From NCBI RefSeq assembly GCF_049337375.1, contig NZ_JBMPIV010000001.1: a stretch of DNA of 64,000 nt. One strand, written 5' to 3'. This document shows, in pieces, positions 14,565 through 64,000 of this stretch. Below the pieces are notes generated by a model, which was not told the DNA's origin, ran no database searches, and worked only from the letters and a program-made list of their open reading frames with translations. The position numbers and the translations under genes are program-made. Within the stretch, counting starts at the first letter, position 1, and the number at the start of each line of letters is the position of its first letter. This DNA comes from Nannocystis pusilla. GTDB taxonomy: Bacteria > Myxococcota_A > Polyangia > Nannocystales > Nannocystaceae.

Positions 14565-14690
14565 CCCCGCGTGTCCCGAGCGGACGTGCGGCCCGGCGGT
14601 CGATGGCCGCCAGGACATGTCCGTGAGGATATGCTCGATAGGACATGATCTCGAGAGCCTGTCCATGAGGACATGCTCGCGAGATCCTAT
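14565..14690. repeat. cluster of GGACATGTCC-type palindromic units (5 half-sites) in a convergent intergenic spacer
   Basis: caGGACATGTCCgtgagg, atatgctc, GGACATGATC, gtccatgaGGACATGCTC, all between the mqnD and ABC-ATPase stops. Confidence 0.6.
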
Positions 14691-20784: not shown

Positions 20785-20852
20785 GGGCATGCCCGATCGG
20801 GCATGTCTGTCAGGGCATGGCTGATGGGGCATGTGCTTCGCGACATGCCCTG
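20785..20852. repeat. four tandem ~14-bp GGGCATGKCY units (GGACATGTCC family) in a convergent spacer
   Basis: gggcatgtctgtca / gggcatggctgat / ggggcatgtgcttc / gcgacatgccctga. Confidence 0.6.
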
Positions 20853-21885: not shown

Positions 21886-22504
21886 ACTCGTCCTCGCCTT
21901 CGTAGTTGCGGATCTCGACGCTCAGGCGATACGGGTACTCGGCGGTCGCGGTGTCGCTGTGGACGCGGACCAGGAGGGTGCCGGCGTAGTCGTCGCCGTA
22001 TCCACCGAGCGCGAGCACGCCACCGTCGGCCGTCTGCGCGGTCAAGGGCTCGTGGGTGTCGGCGCGGTAGACCTCGATGGTCATGGCGTGCTCGGGACCG
22101 GGCGCGAGCACCGGCTCCCCGCACGCGGCTCCGCACAGGCCGGCGTCATCCACCAGACCGCGCACGTAGAGGTAGTGGACGGCATAACCGAGGTCGGCGA
22201 CGTCGAAGCGGTACCAGTCGTCCTCGCCAGGGCAGAGGTAGGCGTCGGTGACCTCGTGGTAGGCGGACCACTCGCTGACGCCGCTCCAGGCGACGTCGGT
22301 CGCGTCGTCGGGCTCGTCGTTGGGCTCCCAGGCGTCGTTGAGCGGGCAGGCGGCGGCGCCGGTGGTCGAGGCGGCGGCGGAGGTGCCGGGATCGTCGCCG
22401 TCCCGCGACGCGAGGTCGCAGGCGGCGAGCGCGGAGAGGATGGCGACATGTCTCAAGAGACATGTCGAACGCGCGGCGGCCGAGGTCGGGACTGGCGTCG
22501 TCAT
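21875..22504 (-). CDS. lipoprotein with EPND-motif (pre-peptidase C-terminal-like) domain
   Basis: LSALAAC lipobox and WEPNDEPDDATDV motif. Part of the signal-peptide coding region is a perfect 24-bp GACATGTC palindrome. Confidence 0.5.
   Translation of the reverse strand: MTTPVPTSAAARSTCLLRHVAILSALAACDLASRDGDDPGTSAAASTTGAAACPLNDAWEPNDEPDDATDVAWSGVSEWSAYHEVTDAYLCPGEDDWYRFDVADLGYAVHYLYVRGLVDDAGLCGAACGEPVLAPGPEHAMTIEVYRADTHEPLTAQTADGGVLALGGYGDDYAGTLLVRVHSDTATAEYPYRLSVEIRNYEGEDECEC
22444..22467. repeat. perfect 24-bp palindrome CGACATGTCTCAAGAGACATGTCG inside the signal-peptide coding region
   Basis: Reverse complement is identical. Encodes STCLLRHV of the lipoprotein N-region. Confidence 0.7.
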
Positions 22505-23008
22505 CGGTGATCCGGAGGTCACGCAAACGTGGGCCCGCGATCGCGGCCGGCAATCGAGTCGGGTCGCGCAGACCGAGGCGAGGGGACAGTCGCAGATCCG
22601 GCGACGAAGGGACCGAGCGAGCCAAGAACACCGGCGCAGGCGCCGCCCCACGAGGCGCGGAGACGGGATGTCCGAAAGGCCAGGCAGCGAGCCGGCGCGC
22701 CGCGCTTCCCGGATGTCCGAAGGGGCAGGCGATCCATGTGGACGACGAGGGGTGGAGCTGCGGGATCGGGATGTTCCGGAGAGACAGGCGGACGCGGCGG
22801 CAGCCGGAGCAGGCGCAGGATGTCCCGAGCTACAGGTCGCAGCGGCCGCGGCCGGAGCGCGCGCGAGATGTCCGAAGAGGCAGGTCAGCGGGGGGAACTG
22901 CGAGGAAGGGCGCGAGGAGCGTCGGCCCGCGCCGTCTCGCTCCGAGCAGGGAACGGTGCGGGGCGTCGGCCGAGTGACGCCCCTCGCGGGCCGCGGCGGG
23001 GCCGTCGC

Positions 23009-35555: not shown

Positions 35556-35584
35556 GCCGCGCCCGTAGGTGAGAGATGGCGTGA

Positions 35585-35615
35585 CCGCCAGGACATGTCC
35601 TGGCGGTCATGCTGC
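35585..35615. repeat. 24-bp perfect palindrome ACCGCCAGGACATGTCCTGGCGGT (GGACATGTCC family)
   Basis: Sits 30 nt downstream of the PBP stop in a convergent spacer. Confidence 0.7.
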
Positions 35616-35839: not shown

Positions 35840-35910
35840 AACAGGGCCGTTCGGACATGTCCGAGCGGCCCTGCGTGAACGGGCATGTCCGCCGGGACAT
35901 GCCGTAAAGG
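35840..35910. repeat. cluster of GGACATGTCC-family palindromes (GGGCCGTTCGGACATGTCCGAGCGGCCC plus two half-sites)
   Basis: 28-bp near-perfect palindrome, then GGGCATGTCC and GGGACATGCC, just downstream of the fadE stop. Confidence 0.65.
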
Positions 35911-40595: not shown

Positions 40596-41902
40596 TGCGC
40601 GTCGCGTTCAGCACGCTCGGCTGTCGTCTCAACCAGTTCGAGTCCGACGCCCTCGAGCAGATGGCCCGCGCGGCCGGCCACACCGTGGTCGACGCCGAGG
40701 CCGCGCCCGAGGTCGTGATCGTCAACACCTGCACGATCACCCACGAGGCCGACGCCGACGCGCGCCAACACGTGCGCCGGGCCGCGCGCGCCGGGGCGAA
40801 GGTGGTGGTCACCGGCTGCTGGGCGACGGCCGCCCCCGCGGAGGCGGCGGCGCTGCCGGGGGTGACGCTGGTGGTCGGCAACCGCGAGAAGGAGCGGCTG
40901 TTCGAGGTGCTCGGAGAGACATGTTCGGAGGGACATGTCCCGGAGATCCACGTGGCCCCGGTCGACCTGCTGCGGCGCGTCCGGGCGGCCCGCCTGCGCC
41001 CGGCCGCCGACCCGCGGCGCAGCCGGGCGTACCTGAAGATCCAGGACGGCTGCGACTACCGCTGCAGCTTCTGCATCGTGCCGCAGGTGCGCGGGCGCAG
41101 CGTGAGCGTGGCGCCCGCGGAGGTGCGGGCGCAGCTGGACGAGCTGGTCGCCGCGGGGGTGCCCGAGGTGGTGCTCACCGGGGTCCACCTCGGGATCTAC
41201 GGCCGCGACCTGCGGCCGCGCAGCTCGTTGTCGTCGCTGATCGCGGAGCTGCTGCCGCAGCTCGGGCCGGCGCGGCTGCGCCTCGGTTCGGTCGATCCGC
41301 ACGAGGTCGACGATCACCTGGTGACGCTGCTGGCGACGGATCCGCGGCTGTGTCCGTACCTCCACTTGCCGGTGCAGAGCGGCGACGACGACACGCTGCG
41401 GCGCATGCGGCGGGCGCACACGGCCGCCGACCTGCAGGCGCTGGTGCCTCGGCTGGCCGCGGCGGTGCCGGGGATCGGCATCGGCACCGACGTGATCGTC
41501 GGCTTCCCCGGCGAGTCGGACGAGGCGTTCGCGGCCACGCACGCGCTGCTGGCCGCGCTGCCGCTGGCCTACCTGCACGTGTTCGCCTATTCGCCGCGCG
41601 CGGGCACCGACGCCGCCTGTCTCTCGGGGCAGGTCGACGCGGCGGTCAAGCAGCGGCGCGGCGCGAAGTTGCGGGCGCTGTCGGCGGCGAAGCAGGAGGC
41701 GTTCGCGGCGGCGCAGATCGGGCGCACCCTGCCGGTGGTGATGCACCGGTCGCGTCACCGGCGGACGGGGCTGCTGGTCGGTCGGGCCGGCAACGGCTTG
41801 ACGGTGCTGGCGGCCGGCGACGACGCGCTGCTGGGCCGGGCCGGCCAGATCGAGGTCGAGCGCGCCGAGGGGCCGCTCGCGGTCGGTCGGCTGGTCGCGT
41901 GA
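40595..41902 (+). CDS. mtaB: radical-SAM methylthiotransferase (MiaB/RimO/MtaB family; MtaB-like)
   Basis: MTTase N-domain Cys (GCRLNQFES...NTCTIT...TGCWA). Radical-SAM CDYRCSFC. TRAM-like C-terminus. Start overlaps the kinase stop (TGATG). Confidence 0.8.
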   Translation: MRVAFSTLGCRLNQFESDALEQMARAAGHTVVDAEAAPEVVIVNTCTITHEADADARQHVRRAARAGAKVVVTGCWATAAPAEAAALPGVTLVVGNREKERLFEVLGETCSEGHVPEIHVAPVDLLRRVRAARLRPAADPRRSRAYLKIQDGCDYRCSFCIVPQVRGRSVSVAPAEVRAQLDELVAAGVPEVVLTGVHLGIYGRDLRPRSSLSSLIAELLPQLGPARLRLGSVDPHEVDDHLVTLLATDPRLCPYLHLPVQSGDDDTLRRMRRAHTAADLQALVPRLAAAVPGIGIGTDVIVGFPGESDEAFAATHALLAALPLAYLHVFAYSPRAGTDAACLSGQVDAAVKQRRGAKLRALSAAKQEAFAAAQIGRTLPVVMHRSRHRRTGLLVGRAGNGLTVLAAGDDALLGRAGQIEVERAEGPLAVGRLVA

Positions 41903-42044: not shown

Positions 42045-42082
42045 GTCGGCGCCGAGCTGGCCGCGAGGACATGTCCTGGCGG
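42045..42082. repeat. GGACATGTCC-centred extended palindrome in a convergent spacer
   Basis: gccgcgaGGACATGTCCtggcggc lies between the mtaB stop and the MBL-hydrolase stop. Confidence 0.65.
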
Positions 42083-42091
42083 CCAGTCGGC

Positions 42092-44796: not shown

Positions 44797-45308
44797 GGCA
44801 GGCCTCGCGGGGGCAGAAGAGAGGGCGACGGCGTCCGGGGAGGCGAGAGCCGATGAGATGTCCGCAAGGACAGGTCGCGGGCACCTGGCCCGGGGGACAG
44901 GCGAGCGGGCTCGGCCGTCGCGGGCTCGGCGAGCTCGGCGGTGGACGACGAGGGCTCCGAGCCTGTGAGCTCGGCCGTCGCGGACCGGGCGAGCTCGGCG
45001 GGGGAAGACGAGGGCTCCGGGCCTGTGAGCTCGGCCGTCGCGGACTGGGCGGGCTCGGCGGTGGAAGACGAGGGCTCCGGGCCTGTGAGCTCGGCCGTCG
45101 CGGACTGGGCGGGCTCGGCGGTGAACGACGATGGCTCGGCGGTCGGGCCTGTGAGCTCGGCCGTCGCGGGCTGTGCGGTGGACGGCTCGCTAGCGGTCGC
45201 GCCTGCGAGCTGGGCGGCGAGCTCGGCCGTTGCCGACGACTCGCGCGCGGGAGCGGCCGGGCCTGTCCCGGGGGACAGCTCGCGGGCGCGGGGTTCAGGC
45301 GCGGGCAT
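44793..45308 (-). CDS. putative acidic Ser/Pro/Thr-rich protein with 4.5 tandem 20-aa repeats (TAELTGPEPSSSTAEPAQSA)
   Basis: Minus-strand frame over the 60-bp tandem repeat has very high GC3. ATGA-coupled to the downstream hcnA-like start. Overlaps the upstream ooxA-like stop by 14 nt. Could alternatively be a non-coding repeat. Confidence 0.3.
   Translation of the reverse strand: MPAPEPRARELSPGTGPAAPARESSATAELAAQLAGATASEPSTAQPATAELTGPTAEPSSFTAEPAQSATAELTGPEPSSSTAEPAQSATAELTGPEPSSSPAELARSATAELTGSEPSSSTAELAEPATAEPARLSPGPGARDLSLRTSHRLSPPRTPSPSLLPPRGLP
44901..45180. repeat. 60-bp tandem direct repeat, ~4.5 copies
   Basis: gagctcggcggtggaMgacgagggctccgRgcctgtgagctcggccgtcgcggacYgggc repeated head-to-tail from ~44901 to 45180. 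Flanked by ctgtccc-gg-gggacag inverted repeats at 44886-44902 and 45263-45280. Confidence 0.8.
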
Positions 45309-46632
45309 GGCTGTCCTTCGGGTCAGGTGACTCGGCGAGCGCGCGCACCAGGGCGGCGGCGCAGCGGTCGACGGTGCCGCGGATCTCAGCGGGCGTGGTG
45401 GCGCCGGCCAGCTCGCCGACGGCCCACAGCGTCCACGGCGGGGGCGGGGCGGTCTGGGCGCCTTCGGCCTCGAGCGGGTGCGCGGCCGGGCCGGCGGCGA
45501 TCCGGCCGTCGGCGTCGACGACGGGGGCGAAGCCGGCCCCGGTGAAGTGGATCGGGGCGCCGGCCTGGGCGGCCAGCTCGAAGGCGGGGGCGGGGTCGGG
45601 GGCGAGGGCGACGAGGTCGCAGCGGAGGATCTTGCCGTCCTCGAGCTGGACGCCCTTGACCCGGCGCGCGCCGATCAGCTTGCGCACGCGTGCCGGCGGG
45701 ACCCGCTCGGCGGCGAGGGTGCTAGCGAGCAGCTCGGCGCGGGCGCCCTCGCCGATGACGACGACGCGCGCGCTCGACTTGCGACCTGTCTGTTCGAGCA
45801 TGTCCGCGAGGCCACGTGCGGACACGACCCCGGGGAGGTCGTTGTTGGCCAGCGGGATGGTCGGCTCGTGGGCGCCGACGGCCAGGACGACGTGGCGCGG
45901 GCGCAGGCGATGGAGCACCGGCGGCTGCTCGGAGGCGGCGGCCCACAGCCGCTCCTGCGGGTAGCAGGCGAACACGCCGACGCCGGCGAGGAGCCGCGCC
46001 GGGAGGTCGCTGCCGCCGAGGGCGGCGGCGGGGCGGCGCTCGACGACCAGCGGCGGGTGGCCGGCGGCGGTCAGGGCGGCCGCGAGCGCGCGGCCGGAGC
46101 GACCTGCCCCGATGACCAGGACCTCGGGGGCATGGTCGACGACGGCGGCGACGTCTTCGGGCGGCGCGTCGGGCAGCTCGCCGAAGCCGGCCAGCTCGCG
46201 GGCGACGCCCTGCATCATCTGGTTGGCGATCCGCGGGTAGACGACGAGGTGGTGGTGATCGATGCCGCGGCGGAACACCTGGTCGACGAGGGCGGTCGGG
46301 TCGAGGCCGCCGTAGGTGTTCTGCGGCTCGACGCACATGTCCTCGCGGACAGGCGTGAGGCAGGCCCGCTGGTTGGGCCGGCCGTCGACGCGCACGAGGC
46401 AGGTGCCGCAGCCGCCGTGCAGGCAGGCGGGGCCGCGCAGCCGGCGGTACTTGGCGCTACGGCTGGTGGCGAGCTCGCCGGCGGCGATCAGCGCGGAGGC
46501 GACGGTGTCGCCGGGACAGGCGGCGACCGGGGCGCCGTCCCAGCGGAAGGAGATCGTCGGGGGCCCGGGCGGTGCGAGCAGGGGTGCCTTGGGCACGCGC
46601 CTGCGATAGCACGCCGCGCCGCGCGGGGACAT
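45295..46632 (-). CDS. FAD/NAD(P)-binding oxidoreductase with N-terminal [2Fe-2S] domain (HcnB / opine-oxidase α-like subunit)
   Basis: N-terminal Fer2_4-like CPGDTVASAL...CLHGGCGTC. Pyridine-nucleotide-disulfide oxidoreductase motif VLVIGAGRSG. Confidence 0.75.
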   Translation of the reverse strand: MSPRGAACYRRRVPKAPLLAPPGPPTISFRWDGAPVAACPGDTVASALIAAGELATSRSAKYRRLRGPACLHGGCGTCLVRVDGRPNQRACLTPVREDMCVEPQNTYGGLDPTALVDQVFRRGIDHHHLVVYPRIANQMMQGVARELAGFGELPDAPPEDVAAVVDHAPEVLVIGAGRSGRALAAALTAAGHPPLVVERRPAAALGGSDLPARLLAGVGVFACYPQERLWAAASEQPPVLHRLRPRHVVLAVGAHEPTIPLANNDLPGVVSARGLADMLEQTGRKSSARVVVIGEGARAELLASTLAAERVPPARVRKLIGARRVKGVQLEDGKILRCDLVALAPDPAPAFELAAQAGAPIHFTGAGFAPVVDADGRIAAGPAAHPLEAEGAQTAPPPPWTLWAVGELAGATTPAEIRGTVDRCAAALVRALAESPDPKDSHARA

Positions 46633-51145: not shown

Positions 51146-52345
51146 TCACTCGCTCGGCGCGGTGACCCGCTGCGGCTGCACGCGAGAGCTCCGCAGCATG
51201 TCCTGGAACGGGTTGTCGTCGCGCCAGACGTCGCCCGCGAGCATGCTGATGAGGCCGCGCCGCAGCTGGGGGTCGGGCGTGCGGGCGAAGAACAGGTGCG
51301 ACACGAGGCGCGTGTGGTAAAAGCGGCGGATCAGCTGCTCGAAGCTGTCGTAGGCGACCTGCATGGTGGCGTGGACCGGGGCCATGAGATCGGCCGCGGC
51401 CTCGCGGCCCTCGGCGAGCGCCGGGACGAGGAGGTCGACGGTGCGCTCGGCGCCCAGCATCGCCAGCGAGACGCCCGACGAGAACACGGGGTCGAGGAAT
51501 GCGCAGGCGTCGCCGACGCAGGCCCAGCGCGGGCCGGAGGGGCGGGTGTTCTTGTAGCTCCAGTTGCGGATCGTCCGCGTGGCGCTGCGCGTGGCCCCGG
51601 CGGTGAGCCGGCGGCACAGCGGCGAGGCGGCCAGGGCGGCCTCGAAGGCGTCGTCGTCGAGCTTGCCCCGCCACTTCACGAGGCCGACGCTGAGCCGACC
51701 GCCGTGCATGGGGATGAGCCAGTGCCAGCCGTCCTCGACGATCAGCACCTTGATGTTGCCCTGCTCGCCGAGCTCGGCGCGGACCTCGGGCGAGAGATCG
51801 TCGAAGTGGCAGAAGACGGCGGCGCGCCCGAGCTCGTGCAGCGGGGCGATCGTGCGGGCGCCGCGGCCGAGCATGGCGTCCTGGCCGGTGCAGTCGAGGA
51901 GGAAGCGGGCCCGGTGCTCCTCGCGGTCGGTGACGACGCGGACGTGATCGGCGGCGAACTCGATGTCGCGCACGCGCTCGCCGAAGCGGATGTCGGCGCC
52001 GCGGCTCGTGGCGACGTCGCACAGCATGGTGTCGAAGGTGGCGCGGTCGACCTGCCAGGCGTGCGAGGGCGTGCCCTCGAGGCCGTCGGCGAAGCTGAAG
52101 AAGGCGAACTCGCCGGTGCGCTCGTCGATGAACTCGGCGCCCTGCTTGAACTGCCAGCGCGCGCGATCCATGGCGACGCCGAGGCGGGCGAAGATCGGCA
52201 GGTCGATCGGCAGCAGCGACTCGCCGATGTGGAAGCGCGGGAACACGTCCTTGTCGAGCGTGACGGCCCGGACGCCCGCCTGCGCGAGCAAGTTGGCGGC
52301 GGTCGATCCGGCCGGGCCGGCCCCGACGATCAGGACGTCGTGCAT
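51146..52345 (-). CDS. flavin-dependent halogenase-like FAD monooxygenase
   Basis: GAGPAGS FAD-binding motif. GWHWLIP (GWxWxIP) and FLDPVFSSGVS (FxxPxxSxG) motifs, both characteristic of flavin-dependent halogenases. Confidence 0.6.
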   Translation of the reverse strand: MHDVLIVGAGPAGSTAANLLAQAGVRAVTLDKDVFPRFHIGESLLPIDLPIFARLGVAMDRARWQFKQGAEFIDERTGEFAFFSFADGLEGTPSHAWQVDRATFDTMLCDVATSRGADIRFGERVRDIEFAADHVRVVTDREEHRARFLLDCTGQDAMLGRGARTIAPLHELGRAAVFCHFDDLSPEVRAELGEQGNIKVLIVEDGWHWLIPMHGGRLSVGLVKWRGKLDDDAFEAALAASPLCRRLTAGATRSATRTIRNWSYKNTRPSGPRWACVGDACAFLDPVFSSGVSLAMLGAERTVDLLVPALAEGREAAADLMAPVHATMQVAYDSFEQLIRRFYHTRLVSHLFFARTPDPQLRRGLISMLAGDVWRDDNPFQDMLRSSRVQPQRVTAPSE

Positions 52346-52352
52346 GACCGGG

Positions 52353-53075
52353 TCATACCATGCCGCCGTTGATGCCGATCACCTGACCGGTGATGTACGC
52401 GGCGGCGTCGCTGGCCAGGAAGGCGACCAGCGCGGCGACCTCGGGGGCGGTGCCGAGCCGCTGCGCGGGGATCCGCGGCATCACGTGGTCGAGCGGGACG
52501 TCCTTGATCATGTCGGTGTCGACGAGGCCGGGCGAGACCGCGTTGACGGTGACGCCCTTGCGGGCGAGCTCGAGCGCCAGCGATTTGGTCGCGCCGATGA
52601 CGCCGGCCTTGGCCGCGGCGTAGGCGACCTGCCCGCGATTGCCGAGCTGGGCCGAGACGGAGCTCATGGTGATGATCCGGCCCCACTTGCGCCGCACCAT
52701 CGGCATGATCACCGGGCGGGTCACGTTGTAGAAGCCGCCCAGGCTGGTCCGAAGGACAGCTTCCCAGTCGGCCCGCTCGAGCGCGGGGAACGGGGCGTCG
52801 CGGGCGATCCCGGCGTTGTTGACGAGGACCCCGAGCGGCCGCGGGTCGGCGAGGATGGCGTTCATCGCCGCGTCGGCGGCCGCGTCGTCGCCGACGTCGA
52901 AGCGGCTGAGGACGACCTCGCCGCCGGCGGCGCGGATCCGGGCGGCGACGGCCTCGGCGGCGGCGTCGTCGCTGCGGTAGTTGAGGATGATGGGGTGACC
53001 GGCGGCCGCGAGGGCCTCGGCGATCGCGGCGCCGATCCCTCGACTGGCGCCGGTGACGAGCGCGCGTGGCTTCAT
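52353..53075 (-). CDS. fabG: 3-oxoacyl-[ACP] reductase (SDR)
   Basis: TGASRGIG, NNAG, S...Y...K catalytic triad (SSVSAQLGNRGQVAYAAAKAG). 240 aa. Confidence 0.85.
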   Translation of the reverse strand: MKPRALVTGASRGIGAAIAEALAAAGHPIILNYRSDDAAAEAVAARIRAAGGEVVLSRFDVGDDAAADAAMNAILADPRPLGVLVNNAGIARDAPFPALERADWEAVLRTSLGGFYNVTRPVIMPMVRRKWGRIITMSSVSAQLGNRGQVAYAAAKAGVIGATKSLALELARKGVTVNAVSPGLVDTDMIKDVPLDHVMPRIPAQRLGTAPEVAALVAFLASDAAAYITGQVIGINGGMV

Positions 53076-53521
53076 GCGGGGCTCCCTGCGGAGGTGCTGG
53101 GTGGGGCGGTGGAGACGACGGAGAGCACGGCCTCGGCCAGCGGCTGGCCGCGGCGCGTGACGGCGGCGCGGTACTCGGCCATGGCGCCGGCGAACACGCG
53201 GGTGGCGACGATCTGCAGCGGGTCGCCGACGGCGAGGTGCTCGGCGTGCAGGTCGAAGTTGCGGCAGGCGGCGATGAGGCCGAGCGCCGGCGGCTGATGG
53301 TCGGCGCGCGCGCGCAGGCCGGCGAACGCGGCGATCGCCTGGGCCATGTACTCGAGCAGGACCGAGGCGTGGACCCGGCCGTCGACGACGAACAGGTTGT
53401 CGGGGCGGACCTGCGCGGCGCAGGTGATGTCGTCGGCGCCGGCGGCCACGACCTCGTCGAGCAGCAGCATCGGCGGGCGCTGCGGGACCAGCTCGGCTAC
53501 CGGCGGGAAGGCGGCGGTCAT
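53072..53521 (-). CDS. hotdog-fold 3-hydroxyacyl-ACP dehydratase-like protein
   Basis: 149 aa. Pattern typical of FabZ/ApeI-like dehydratases (PPMLLLDEV...H..VLLEYMAQ). ATGA coupling on both sides. Confidence 0.6.
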   Translation of the reverse strand: MTAAFPPVAELVPQRPPMLLLDEVVAAGADDITCAAQVRPDNLFVVDGRVHASVLLEYMAQAIAAFAGLRARADHQPPALGLIAACRNFDLHAEHLAVGDPLQIVATRVFAGAMAEYRAAVTRRGQPLAEAVLSVVSTAPPSTSAGSPA

Positions 53522-54321
53522 GCCCCGGCTCCGAGCGTGCACTGCCAGCCGACCGCGAGGTGCGGCTCGAGGGCGACGCGCGCCGGGGCGCCGGCGGCCA
53601 GCGCCTCGACCAGGGCGAGCGCGGCGGCGCACGGGTTCTGGGCCAGGGCGGCCGGGATCGGGCGCGGCGCGGCGAGCATGTCGCTGGGGCCATGTTCGAG
53701 GCGACATGTCCTCGCGGGCATGTTGCCGGGGCCAGGCGCCGACAGGGCGAAGGCGGCGGCGAACGGGTCCCAGCGGCGGCCGGCGGCCAGCGGCTCGGGC
53801 AGCGGCTCCTCGGCGATCACGAGCACCACGTCGCCCTCTCCGGCGGCCACGAGGGCGGCGCACTCGACGAGGCCCATGGCGAGGGTGCTGCGGCCGGCCG
53901 ACAGCGCGGCGTTGCCGGCCCGGTTGCCGGTGGCGATCGAGACGTAGCCGGCGGCCGTGTTGTGGACGCTGTTGTGGAACTTGGTCGGCGACAGCGGCTC
54001 GCCGGCGACGAGCAGGGCGCCGAGGAGGTCGAGGGTGGTGCGGATCTCGCCGTAGACGGAGCCGTAGACGAGGGTGGCGGCGGTTCGGTCGACGCCGCCG
54101 TCCTGCAGCGCCTGGGCCGCGACCTCGGCGGCCATGCGGGTGAGCAGGCTGGTGCGCCGGCGCATCATCGGCGGCAGCAGCTCGGCTCTGGGGGCGGAGG
54201 GCTCGGTCGGCGACGCCTGTCCTTCGGGCCAGGTGTCGGGCCGGGCCCGCCAGGCGGCGAGGTCGGGGTAGCCTGGCGTCCAGAAGCCGAGGCCGCGGAC
54301 GGTGAAGGCGAGCGCGCTCAT
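53518..54321 (-). CDS. β-ketoacyl synthase-like chain-length-factor protein (no active-site Cys)
   Basis: KS N-terminal-domain-like sequence lacking the TACSSS Cys. Position directly after a bona fide KAS. Contains a GGACATGTCC-type element in frame. Confidence 0.6.
   Translation of the reverse strand: MSALAFTVRGLGFWTPGYPDLAAWRARPDTWPEGQASPTEPSAPRAELLPPMMRRRTSLLTRMAAEVAAQALQDGGVDRTAATLVYGSVYGEIRTTLDLLGALLVAGEPLSPTKFHNSVHNTAAGYVSIATGNRAGNAALSAGRSTLAMGLVECAALVAAGEGDVVLVIAEEPLPEPLAAGRRWDPFAAAFALSAPGPGNMPARTCRLEHGPSDMLAAPRPIPAALAQNPCAAALALVEALAAGAPARVALEPHLAVGWQCTLGAGA
53686..53760. repeat. GGACATGTCC-family element lying inside the CLF-like coding sequence (in frame)
   Basis: catgttcgaggcGACATGTCCtcgcgggcatgttgcc encodes ...GNMPARTCRLEHGPSDML... 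within the protein. Confidence 0.5.
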
Positions 54322-54354
54322 GCCGGGCCTCGGACGAGGCGTGGGGCCGGAGCT

Positions 54355-54500
54355 GAACTTTTGGACATGGCCCGGAAGACCTGCCCGAAAGCGCAGCCGA
54401 CCGGACCCGATGTACGACCCGTGGCGGTCGGGCCGCAGAGGCGCAGCCGGGGAGGTGTCGTGGGGGACATGTCCCGGGAGACCTGTCGGAAGGTGCTCAT
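54355..54500. repeat. GGACATGTCC-family cluster in the 176-bp KS-CLF spacer
   Basis: ttGGACATGGCCcggaaGACCTGCCcgaa ... gggGGACATGTCCcgggaGACCTGTCggaagg. Confidence 0.65.
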
Positions 54501-55678
54501 GCGGGGCCTCCGACGAGGACGCTGCAGTTGCTGCCGCCGAACGCGAACGAGTTGCTGAGCGCGGCGCGGGTGCGGACGTCGCGGCGGGCGGTGACCACGT
54601 CGACCGCGAGGGTGTCGTCGAGCGGGTCGGCGCCGACGCTGGCGGGCAGGTAGCGGCCGGCGATGGCGTCGATCACGAAGGCGACCTCGGTGGCGCCCGC
54701 GGCCCCGAGCATGTGGCCGGTGTAGCCCTTGGTGGCGACCACCGCGGGCGCGGGGGCGCCGGCGAACACGGCCCGGATCGCCGCGCTCTCCATGCTGTCG
54801 TTCTGCTTGGTGCCGGTGCCGTGGGCGTTGACGTGGTCGACGTCGGCGGCGGAAAGGCCCGCGTGCCGGAGCGCGCGCTCCATCGCCAGGCGCGCGCCGA
54901 GGCCCTCGGGGTGCGGGCTCGTCATGTGGTAGGCGTCGGAGCTCTCGCCGACCCCGAGCAGGCGGGCCGGGCCGTCACCTGTCCGTTCGACCAGGAGCAG
55001 CGCGGCGCCCTCGCCGATGTTGATGCCGGCGCGCTCGCTCGAGAACGGGCGACATGGCCGCGAGGACAGGACCTCGAGCCCGGCGAAGCCGCGCACGGTG
55101 AGGCGGCACAGGCTGTCGACGCCGCCGACCAACACCGCGTCGCACAGGCCGGCGGCGAGCAGACGCTGGGCCGAGGCGAACACCTTGGCGGACGAGGAGC
55201 AGGCGGTCGAGACGACGTAGGCCGGGCCGCCGAGGCCGCCGCCGAGGACGCGGGCGACGTGCAGGACGGCGTCGAGGGCGTGCGAGGTCTCGACGTCGTA
55301 GTCGGCCGGGAGGGCGCCGCCGTGGGCCTGCGCGTGGGCGTAGGCGGTCTCGCTGGCCTCGATGCCGCCGGTGCTGGTGCCGAGGACGACGGCGACGCGG
55401 TCCGAGCCCCAGCGGGCGCGCGCGCGGTCCAGCGGGGCCTGCAGCTCGGCCAGCGCGACGGCGGCGATCCGCGTCTGCCGGGTGTCGCGGACCGGGCCGA
55501 GGAAGCCGGGCAGCGGCGGCAGCGGGGTCGGGATGGCGCCGACGACCGCGTCGAGCTCGAACTCGGCGGGGCACGGGCCGAGGCCGGAGCGACCGGCACG
55601 CAAGGCCGCGAGCACCGCGGCGGTGCTGTCGCCCATGCCGTTGCACAGGGCCATGGCGGTGATGGGGTACGGCTGCAT
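54497..55678 (-). CDS. β-ketoacyl-[ACP] synthase (KAS I/II-like)
   Basis: Active-site Cys motif VSTACSSS. His motifs (HMTSP, NAHGTGT). C-terminal FAFGGSN. Confidence 0.85.
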   Translation of the reverse strand: MQPYPITAMALCNGMGDSTAAVLAALRAGRSGLGPCPAEFELDAVVGAIPTPLPPLPGFLGPVRDTRQTRIAAVALAELQAPLDRARARWGSDRVAVVLGTSTGGIEASETAYAHAQAHGGALPADYDVETSHALDAVLHVARVLGGGLGGPAYVVSTACSSSAKVFASAQRLLAAGLCDAVLVGGVDSLCRLTVRGFAGLEVLSSRPCRPFSSERAGINIGEGAALLLVERTGDGPARLLGVGESSDAYHMTSPHPEGLGARLAMERALRHAGLSAADVDHVNAHGTGTKQNDSMESAAIRAVFAGAPAPAVVATKGYTGHMLGAAGATEVAFVIDAIAGRYLPASVGADPLDDTLAVDVVTARRDVRTRAALSNSFAFGGSNCSVLVGGPA

Positions 55679-60170: not shown

Positions 60171-60225
60171 CTGTCTCGAGATGACTGTTTGGACATGCTC
60201 ATACGGACATGTCCAAAGAGGCTCC
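60171..60225. repeat. GGACATGTCC-family interrupted palindrome downstream of the kinase gene
   Basis: tttGGACATGctcatacGGACATGTCCaaagagg. Confidence 0.6.
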
Positions 60226-62794: not shown

Positions 62795-63501
62795 GCGCGA
62801 ACGACAACCCCGCGGTCACGGCCGTCGACACGGCCGCCCCGCCGCTGCCGGGCGGCCAGCGCCTGCGGCCCGCCGGCGCGTCGCGGCCGGGCTGCCGCGT
62901 GCTGGTGATCGACAACTACGACTCGTTCACCTTCAACCTGGTGCAGTACCTGCTGCAGCTCGGCGCGGTGGTCGACGTCCACCGCAACGACGCGGTCAAG
63001 CTCGAGCAGGTGCTGGCCGACGCGCCGAGCCACATCGTCCTGTCCCCGGGGCCAGGTACGCCGGCCGACAGCGGGGTGTGCCAGGACCTGTGCCGCCGGC
63101 TGGCCGAGGCCGACGCGCCGGCGATCCCGGTGCTCGGGGTGTGCCTCGGCCACCAGACGCTGTGCGAGGTGCTGGGCGCGCGGGTCGAGCGGGCCGGGCG
63201 CATCATGCACGGCAAGCTGTCGCCGATGCTGCACGACGCCACCGGGGTGTTCGCCGGGCTGCCGTCGCCGTTCATGGCCACGCGCTACCACAGCCTGGTC
63301 GCGGTCGAGAGCACGCTGCCGGCCGCGCTGATCCCCAACGCGCGCACCGACGCCGGCGAGCTGATGGGCGTGCGCCACGCGACGCGGCCGCTGCACGGGG
63401 TCCAGTTCCACCCCGAGTCGGTGCTCAGCGAGCACGGCCACGCGATGCTGCGCAACTTCCTCGAGATGCATGTCCCTTCGAACATGGCGGTGACGACATG
63501 A
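62791..63501 (+). CDS. trpG: anthranilate synthase component II (glutamine amidotransferase)
   Basis: GATase-1 catalytic triad (VLGVCLGHQ, HPES). GTGA overlap with the trpE stop. Confidence 0.85.
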   Translation: MSANDNPAVTAVDTAAPPLPGGQRLRPAGASRPGCRVLVIDNYDSFTFNLVQYLLQLGAVVDVHRNDAVKLEQVLADAPSHIVLSPGPGTPADSGVCQDLCRRLAEADAPAIPVLGVCLGHQTLCEVLGARVERAGRIMHGKLSPMLHDATGVFAGLPSPFMATRYHSLVAVESTLPAALIPNARTDAGELMGVRHATRPLHGVQFHPESVLSEHGHAMLRNFLEMHVPSNMAVTT

Positions 63502-64000
63502 CCGAAGGGACAGCCGACGGGGCGCTGCGGCGCGGGCTGGGCCGGCTGGTCCGCGGCGAGGCGTTAGGCGAGGGCGAGGCGCTGGCGATCTTCCGCGAGA
63601 TCGTGGCCGGGGCGGCCGACCCGGCGCAGATCGGCGGGCTTTTGGTCGCGCTGGCGATCCGCGGCGAGACTGCGCCGGTGATCGCCGGGGCGGTGCGGGC
63701 GATGCGAGAGGCGGTGGTGCCGGTGCCGCTGCGCGAGAGCGGGGCGATCGACACCTGCGGGACCGGCGGCAGCGGGGTGGCCCGGCGCAACGTGTCGACG
63801 GCGGTGGCGATCGCGGCGGCGGCCTGCGGGGCGCGGGTGGCCAAGCACGGCAACCGCGGGATCTCGAGCCCGTGCGGCTCGGCCGACGTGCTGGCCGCGC
63901 TCGGGGTCGACATCACGGCGCCGCCCGAGCGCGTCGGACAGTGCGTCGACGAGGTCGGCGTCGGCTTCATGTTCGCGCCCAGCCTGCACCCGGCGATGCG
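63498..64000 (+). CDS. trpD: anthranilate phosphoribosyltransferase, N-terminal part (runs off the window end)
   Basis: DTCGTGGSG, KHGNR and GSADVL motifs. ATGA overlap with the trpG stop. Confidence 0.8.
   Translation, partial: MTEGTADGALRRGLGRLVRGEALGEGEALAIFREIVAGAADPAQIGGLLVALAIRGETAPVIAGAVRAMREAVVPVPLRESGAIDTCGTGGSGVARRNVSTAVAIAAAACGARVAKHGNRGISSPCGSADVLAALGVDITAPPERVGQCVDEVGVGFMFAPSLHPAM

Follow-up and report, generated by a model that had tools for sequence, protein, structure and literature searches.

The repetitive extragenic palindromes (REPs) and bacterial interspersed mosaic elements (BIMEs) of enterobacteria and pseudomonads are short palindromes, imperfect and frequently in clusters. 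They fold into stable hairpins, lie mainly in 3′ untranslated or convergent regions and not in promoters, number in the hundreds per genome, and go with a conserved GTAG-type head and an IS200/IS605-like transposase (RAYT). Bacterial coding sequence also contains cis-elements under synonymous constraint, such as the intragenic roadblock sites of CcpA (catabolite-responsive elements, cre). Rickettsia palindromic elements (RPEs) are ∼150 bp long and insert, adding a peptide that is absent from orthologues and usually lies at the protein surface (PMC10969869). Several MITEs (miniature transposable elements with inverted repeats), among them ERIC, BOX, Correia, and Nezha, fuse in frame with host open reading frames (PMC10969869), and the canonical operator of PadR regulators is an ATGT/ACAT inverted repeat with a spacer of 8–10 nt (PMC3506622). 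Here we describe a palindromic repeat inside a gene for a chain-length factor (CLF) on a 64,000-nt stretch of Nannocystis pusilla DNA (NCBI RefSeq assembly GCF_049337375.1, contig NZ_JBMPIV010000001.1; hereafter "the window"). The initial annotation had taken this repeat for a palindromic element inserted in frame, in the manner of RPEs. We found that the CLF copy is ancient and in place, overlaying an ancestral loop, β-strand, and loop of the protein. It is probably a cis-acting nucleic-acid element of a REP-like family, embedded in coding sequence and held there by selection on nucleotides.

The host gene (53518..54321, minus strand) encodes 267 aa with a match to PF13723 (Ketoacyl-synt_2, E = 6.6e-41). 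Its homologues are annotated by NCBI as "beta-ketoacyl synthase chain length factor," the nearest named ones being those of N. radixulma (86% identity) and N. pusilla (83%). The top Foldseek match of its AlphaFold model (pLDDT, the predicted local distance difference test score, of 86.5) was chain 6qsp_B (E = 7.5e-12), which is ApeC, the CLF of the Xenorhabdus aryl-polyene pair ApeO:ApeC. The gene therefore encodes an ApeC-type CLF, that is, a half-size ketosynthase (KS)-like protein of the PF13723 family that has the ApeC fold and is encoded beside an ApeO-type KS; the domain match, the homologue names, and the structural match all bear out its first assignment as CLF-like, and the initial placing of the DNA in a myxobacterium was right as well.

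The repeat runs in frame through this gene, as had been claimed: the string first singled out corresponds to 53691–53727, and its reverse complement translates without a stop. The term "palindromic" held in part. Perfect self-complementarity is limited to one 8-mer, GACATGTC, at 53703–53710; there is no single long palindrome, and the 8-mer has short complementary flanks (cgagg/cctcg). A better description is a tandem row of 14-nt units, four in number or arguably five, each built around a self-complementary core like GACATGTC (units A–D and a degenerate fifth unit) (Table 1). Units A–D translate to N199–L215, NMPARTCRLEHGPSDML, and the peptide across the repeat is GNMPARTCRLEHGPSDML (residues 198–215; nt 53677–53730 in the minus-strand frame). 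Units A and B were kept at the nucleotide level in 20 orthologues, and units C and D were limited to the Nannocystis genus and locus L116.

Had an RPE-like mobile palindrome been inserted in frame, a surface loop of the CLF would have gained ∼20–25 residues. The family evidently does insert, as witnessed by a 179-nt KS/CLF insertion found in this lineage only and by a second lineage-specific expansion at 44797–45294; moreover, the copy in the CLF keeps the frame, and units A and D of this copy fall in loops. We nevertheless consider an insertion here very improbable. Homologues without the motif have an alignable segment of the same length, so the proposed insertion of 20–25 residues, missing from homologues, did not materialize; this is the outcome that the initial annotation itself had named as a refutation. 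When 121 homologues were aligned, the conserved prolines P177 and P230, taken as anchors, stood a median of 54 residues apart with the motif versus ∼51 without it, and the loop/strand/loop lengths were 9/9/17 versus 9/9/14, a difference confined to the following loop. Where the Nannocystis clade has MSLRTCRLRQ, distant myxobacterial homologues have SRARLSGLRQ or RTLAALSDLRR. In L162, a Nannocystis-like sequence of 49% identity, DRSGARLVRI aligns to the DMSGRTCRLR of the motif clade and is encoded there by GAT CGG TCT GGT GCT CGC CTG GTG CGG.

The structural model gave the same answer. In the AlphaFold secondary structure, RTCRLEHGP forms β-strand 204–212, paired with strand 187–194, and loops hold only NMPA and SDML; the idea of an insert in a surface loop was thus not upheld, unit B coding for a core β-strand. 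The motif sits at identical codons in all 20 Nannocystis-clade orthologues (58%–86% identity), which span 10 divergent clusters. Among them are relatives whose surrounding 20 kb contain no further GACATGTC. On all these grounds the copy is of ancient date and in place, rather than a mobile element newly inserted. Finally, the element measures ∼56 nt and not ∼150 bp, and there is no conserved peptide or flank family-wide: copies have only the 14-nt unit in common, whereas RPE membership calls for similarity over ∼100–150 bp. With no added peptide and a core strand covered, the likeness to Rickettsia elements is confined to that of a palindromic repeat lying in frame.

By the sequence comparison, the element that truly looks inserted is evidently not the CLF copy but the one in the intergenic region between KS and CLF. 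The gap there is 179 nt, made up of 155 new nt and a 24-nt duplication of the KS-stop/CLF-start junction (GCTCATGCSGGGCCTCSGACGAGG; 54316–54339 and 54495–54518), of which one copy keeps the KS stop and the other keeps the CLF start. N. radixulma, N. pusilla, and L083 (a 62% relative) have no insert, and in them the KS gene runs into the CLF gene, stop over start, at an ATGA; the 99%-identical strain L164 carries the insert with a few substitutions. We found no second copy of the 155-nt insert body in the window beyond the short units. Between the SoxA3-like and Fer2_4 genes (44797–45294), the spacer measures ∼500 nt here, as against ∼170 nt in N. radixulma; a 60-nt tandem repeat (44909–45177; 4.4 copies, 90% matches) and two-unit palindromic sites at 44855 and 45260 lie in the longer spacer.

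Conservation at the CLF site was studied in 19 further CLF DNAs (58%–86% identity) from two Nannocystis genomes and metagenome contigs; together with the window copy, the 20 sequences formed 10 clusters at 80% identity or less. Metagenome orthologues were retrieved by a clade-specific DNA pattern and a search for encoding contigs. A profile search of genome contigs with the family alignment returned, among the matches listed, distant homologues (≤49%) only and no Nannocystis. The site consensus, GAC ATG TCC nnn CGG ACA TGT CGC TTG nnn CAG GG, amounts to two exact cores 14 nt apart, in a gene with ∼93% G/C at third codon positions. Cys206 was TGT in 19 of the 20 sequences, with TGT present in all 10 clusters, and the other two conserved Cys columns were TGC in 18/18 and 20/20. 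Thr205 was ACA in 13/16, Leu208 was TTG in 14/20, and Pro196 was CCT in 11 of the 14 orthologues with a Pro at this position. Context-matched baselines from neighboring genes were 27% for TGT before CG, 1.7% for ACA before TG, 3.7% for TTG after CGN, and 5% for CCT before GG. With clusters taken as independent, the chance of the TGT pattern over 10 clusters is ∼2e-6, and the values for ACA and TTG are smaller still. To judge from these codons, the CLF site is under nucleotide-level constraint, kept beyond the needs of the protein.

The use of TGT, a rare Cys codon, depends strongly on context more generally, in the window genes and in L158–L162. Of the 19 TGT codons in the window genes, 12 precede C (TGTC), and TGT makes up ∼27%–60% before CC or CG and ∼3%–10% otherwise. 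Scattered intragenic CTGTCC/ATGTCG motif fragments may account for part of this dependence. A TGT-CGN codon-pair bias was rejected as the full cause of TGT at the site, the effect being partly real (27% baseline) but insufficient.

Could the peptide alone explain the pattern? The site would then have no nucleic-acid function: DMSxRTCRL would be kept for the protein, its likeness to the repeat coincidental, or rare codons would slow translation. It is true that Cys206, Arg, and Leu are conserved clade-wide, that the strand is structural, and that TGT is commoner before C. However, synonymous choice is not fixed by protein selection, and three or four disfavored codons jointly spell two exact cores at a 14-nt period. 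The motif also recurs in two other frames with unrelated peptides (RHV and PCR), and a translational pause needs no particular sequence. We regard an explanation of this kind as most unlikely.

We give equally little credence to mutational upkeep, whether by templated correction of a quasi-palindrome or by gene conversion with other members of the family as donors. Template switching could homogenize adjacent units, since each is complementary to the next, and the family is multicopy in Nannocystis. However, two relatives at ∼60% identity keep the CLF site with its exact core and have no other GACATGTC in the sampled 20 kb, which makes gene conversion unlikely. Quasi-palindrome correction, for its part, keeps complementarity and not one sequence across 10 lineages, and unit A often differs from unit B, as if "uncorrected."

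The same motif occurs at two more sites, one in CLF and one in KS. Toward the 5′ end of the CLF gene, the window has a degenerate version (CCTGGCC-CGAA-GGACAGG), and 11 orthologues have a clear two-unit element, CGA CAT GTC Cnn GGG GAC AGG TC, encoding the peptide R-H-V-x-G-D-R-S. Its His codon was CAT in 11/11 cases, compared with 6/70 elsewhere in the gene and 5/63 before GT in neighboring genes. The KS site has the consensus GTC CTG TCC nnn nnG CCA TGT CGY, and its TGT was found in 16 of 26 sequences (the window and 25 orthologues), including the deeper relatives L162 and L002. By site, the core is read as GAC-ATG-TC, G-ACA-TGT-C, or GA-CAT-GTC, and the occurrence of one motif in three frames with unrelated peptides argues for selection on the nucleic acid. 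The CLF 5′ element (codons ∼24–34) lies in a variable, low-confidence protein loop, uses the rare codons CGA and CAT, and occurs in L144, L083, L155, L089, L099, L134, L110, L113, L124, and L142.

We then asked in what form the CLF site might be read. In several orthologues, unit A pairs perfectly with unit B over 9 bp, closing a 4-nt loop, and in the Nannocystis genus B pairs with D instead. In a covariation test of A against B, 85.8% of cells were paired with 0 compensatory changes, equal to column shuffles; substitutions at the site break A/B pairs without compensation. The 81-nt CLF segment folded as RNA no better than shuffles (z = −0.78), and RNAalifold gave no consensus structure for the CLF-site orthologues; a hairpin role there is therefore not supported. 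Counts of G-U versus A-C mismatches at the CLF site lent no support to the sense strand. That specific bases are kept without compensatory change argues for sequence-specific reading rather than bare pairing. Among the patterns seen by eye and rejected, the outer stems CCTGG/CCAGG and CGAG/CTTG were inconsistent across lineages, and sigma-54 (GG-N10-GC) and extracytoplasmic-function-type (GGAAC-N16-GTC) promoter readings did not fit in spacing or −24 element.

Sequence-specific reading brings to mind a protein operator. In such an explanation the units are double-stranded DNA operators for a dimeric helix-turn-helix regulator (PadR-like), and the three KS/CLF sites serve within the genes as roadblocks or regulatory sites. 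In favor of this, particular bases are kept without compensation, and the 14-bp register is strict, odd-numbered arrays included. Adjacent units form an ATGT-N8-ACAT dyad, equivalently TGTCC-N4-GGACA, of low information content; at the CLF-start site, no part is better preserved than the inner dyad TGTCC-N4-GGACA, and the PadR operator is an ATGT/ACAT inverted repeat (PMC3506622). However, this likeness rests on 8 bases only, none of the loci examined has a motif upstream of the operon, and a Pfam scan of 30 window proteins contained neither a PadR regulator nor a RAYT (REP-associated tyrosine transposase, Y1). Moreover, arrays occur in none of the eight divergent, promoter-containing regions and in five of the seven convergent ones. 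We thus hold operators of the PadR type to be rather unlikely, although they have points in their favor.

The preferred reading, that of a REP-like cis-element, draws on the family as a whole. The initial annotation had assumed a palindromic repeat family, and indeed the CLF copy is a member of one that is strongly over-represented in the window: there are 12 exact copies of GACATGTC versus 0.82 expected, a count reached by 0 of 100 shuffles. Chains of at least two units (spacing 13–15 nt) number 20 versus 3.2 expected, and those of at least three units number five versus 0.03 expected. The largest arrays, at 14614 and 20786, have five or six units (Table 1). On a gene map built from the G/C content of third codon positions, the 20 element loci fell in 5/7 convergent, 0/8 divergent, and 4/38 tandem intergenic regions, with eight loci intragenic. 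Density was correspondingly uneven (12 loci in 6.8 kb of intergenic versus eight in 57 kb of coding sequence; ∼0.3 loci per kb overall). Intergenic members folded far better than shuffles (z = −3.7 to −6.6). In the two single-unit palindromes, the arms are unrelated in sequence yet complementary, and where the array downstream from the kinase gene is flanked by a stem, the two arms have changed in a compensatory way from species to species (CTTCA/TGAAG vs. TTTGG/CCAAA). To all appearances, intergenic members act like REP-like or terminator-like hairpins and not like promoter operators.

Table 1. Members of the repeat family and associated features of the window, with positions in nucleotides
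Feature	Position	Strand	Sequence	Context
Five-unit array	14614..14683	.		Convergent intergenic; RNA fold z = −5.6
Five-unit array	20786..20849	.		Fills most of an 83-nt convergent intergenic region; z = −3.7
Single unit centered in a perfect 28-nt palindrome	35582..35609	.		Convergent intergenic
Further array	35854–35903			With 35582..35609, fold z = −6.6 and −3.7
Intragenic two-unit site	40918–40939			Radical-SAM methylthiotransferase-like gene
Single unit centered in a near-perfect 30-nt palindrome	42057..42086	.		Convergent, just past the stop of a minus-strand gene; z = −5.5
Two-unit site	45783..45804	−		In Fer2_4 oxidoreductase gene; kept in three Nannocystis species
Four tandem 14-nt palindromic-core units	53675..53730	−		Within CLF coding sequence
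CLF unit A			AACATGCCcgcgag	Sense strand
CLF unit B			GACATGTCgcctcg	Sense strand
CLF unit C			AACATGGCcccagc	Sense strand
CLF unit D			GACATGCTcgccgc	Sense strand
Degenerate fifth unit	53731..53744	−	tgtcggcgCCTGGc	Upstream of unit A (sense); Pro196 = rare CCT
Degenerate second site	54214..54237	−	GACACCTGGCCCGAAGGACAGGCG	Near CLF 5′ end; residues D29–A36; rare codons GAA, GGA
Inserted sequence, 155 nt	54340..54494	.		Between KS and CLF; two- to three-unit modules at 54364–54385 and 54452–54487
Partner ketosynthase gene	54497..55678	−		393 aa; NF006618 beta-ketoacyl-ACP (acyl carrier protein) synthase
Two-unit KS site	55051..55072	−	GTCCTGTCCtcgcGGCCATGTCGC	Sense; peptide VLSSRPCR; rare codons CCA, TGT
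Three-unit array	60178..60213	+		Directly 3′ of Ser/Thr kinase gene; kept in N. radixulma and N. pusilla
Three-unit array	63467..63502	+		Over ATGA overlap of GATase (trpG-like) and glycosyl-transferase-3 (trpD-like) genes; z = −4.3
Motif oligonucleotide			GACATGTCCTTGCGGACATGTC	

For the number of copies per genome, the DNA covered was 64 kb of this genome and two 20-kb stretches from relatives. No part of the window matched an Rfam family, and in open-access PMC and bioRxiv papers we found no account of a Nannocystis or myxobacterial palindromic repeat of this kind; full-text matches to GACATGTC there are mostly p53 half-sites and primers. The 60%-identity relatives (L160:14595–14616; L161:216, 3899, 3934) have hairpins of the GGCCTGTCC-CGCG-GGACAGGCC type without further exact GACATGTC, one of them in the convergent region beside the serine hydroxymethyltransferase gene. 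This suggests an older, more degenerate class of CTGTCC-N4-GGACAG hairpins; the GACATGTC arrays may represent an expansion of that class specific to Nannocystis.

Several other members of the family deserve mention. The array over the trpG-like/trpD-like overlap is a strong hairpin kept in three Nannocystis species (L158:1051, L159:1039), and at this junction it may alter translational coupling. A perfect pair, GACATGTCtcaagaGACATGTC, lies at 22445–22466, and positions 22457–23008 form ∼550 nt without an assigned gene, with a 48-nt tandem repeat (2.4 copies, 22770–22886) whose unit includes the two-unit module GATGTCCGGAGAGACAGGTC. The sole viral-contig match to the two-unit pattern (L163:8926–8953, IMG/VR) is a tandem duplication (GGACATGTCCTCTC x2) in an apparent coding region. 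The high-GC3 (G/C-rich third position) frame of L163 moves by 14 nt across it, as would happen if one of the units had arisen by a duplication that broke the frame or by faulty assembly.

The CLF gene belongs to an operon with the order KS, CLF, ApeP-like dehydratase, FabG, and flavin halogenase, and the CLF stop overlaps the start of the next gene as ATGA. The combination of a KS:CLF pair with a dehydratase, FabG, and a halogenase points to a product that would be a halogenated aryl-polyene or xanthomonadin-like lipid. The flavin halogenase is CmlS/tryptophan-halogenase-like and, in the operon (51146–55678), accompanies the ApeO/ApeC-type KS:CLF. In all Nannocystis-clade loci, the operon is flanked by the serine hydroxymethyltransferase gene and a large tetratricopeptide-repeat Ser/Thr kinase gene. 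A scan for sigma-70 promoters and intrinsic terminators gave no match across the operon.

How might a REP-like cis-element act from within these genes? The CLF copy belongs to the family, was not inserted, and is constrained at the nucleotide level, and the intergenic members form hairpins at the 3′ ends of genes, mostly between convergent ones. On our reading, the sequence of the unit would be recognized by a trans-acting factor, be it as double-stranded DNA or at the tip of a hairpin that adjacent units form. Through the three KS/CLF sites, this factor would adjust how the KS-CLF-dehydratase-reductase-halogenase operon is transcribed or its mRNA processed, and the CLF copy most probably influences one or the other.

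Several points weigh against this reading. A stable hairpin or terminator has no evident benefit in the middle of a gene, and the CLF, KS, and several orthologous copies fold like shuffles (z = −0.78, −0.61, and +0.3 to −1.3, respectively). If the unit is a protein-binding site, intergenic arrays at 3′ ends rather than promoters are unusual, and the 30 window proteins scanned include no candidate binding protein for the motif. TGT is favored before C in these genomes, which weakens the TGT statistic without removing it. Lastly, the orthologues were sampled from metagenome contigs, with relatedness corrected at the cluster level only.

A more ambitious version of the REP-like reading, which we put forward tentatively as a possibility, is an undescribed Nannocystaceae system with a dedicated factor that reads the 14-nt unit with the GACATGTC core. 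The units would mark convergent gene ends, and the intragenic copies (the three KS/CLF sites, the trpG/trpD hairpin, and others) would form a second, overlapping code, conserved over the timescale of a bacterial family, that tunes an operon for a halogenated aryl-polyene-type lipid.

If the REP-like reading is true, the CLF site would be a clean case of bacterial dual coding, in which intragenic repeat copies are under purifying selection at synonymous sites, as opposed to being tolerated accidents like RPE or MITE fusions, and in which this selection is as old as the gene family in the clade. It would offer a well-defined target of ∼30 nt for synonymous recoding, in a polyene/fatty-acid-type operon of under-studied and pharmaceutically relevant myxobacteria. 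Codon optimization of such clusters for heterologous expression would delete the element. The locus is also a warning that an in-frame palindrome in a gene is not by itself proof of insertion.

We return to the described systems. With RPEs the family has in common that it is a palindromic repeat with in-frame translated copies in functional genes; it differs in its ∼56 nt of 14-nt units, in the lack of added length, in covering a core β-strand, and in the constraint on synonymous sites. The 179-nt KS/CLF insertion resembles a MITE in that either end carries a repeat module and the target is duplicated, but a 24-nt duplication far exceeds usual target-site duplications, the window holds no second 155-nt body, and the intragenic CLF copy bears no sign of insertion. 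Adjacent units give exactly the ATGT-N8-ACAT of a PadR operator, yet they lie in 3′ ends and coding sequence and not in promoters, run to as many as five or six units, and have no adjacent PadR gene among the 30 scanned. As with the intragenic cre sites of CcpA, a nucleotide motif is overlaid on a reading frame and conserved beyond the need of the protein; here, however, it is one of a family of dispersed repeats that form hairpins. REPs and BIMEs share with the intergenic members their hairpins and convergent bias, in contrast to the CLF copy, which is intragenic and, like the KS copy, without a stable fold. The units also have no GTAG-type head, no RAYT accompanies them among the scanned proteins, and, instead of alternating in orientation, they follow one another head to tail, each with a self-complementary 8-mer at its center and with the period fixed at 14 nt. 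Above all, some copies here are both intragenic and deeply conserved, which is not a trait of REPs.

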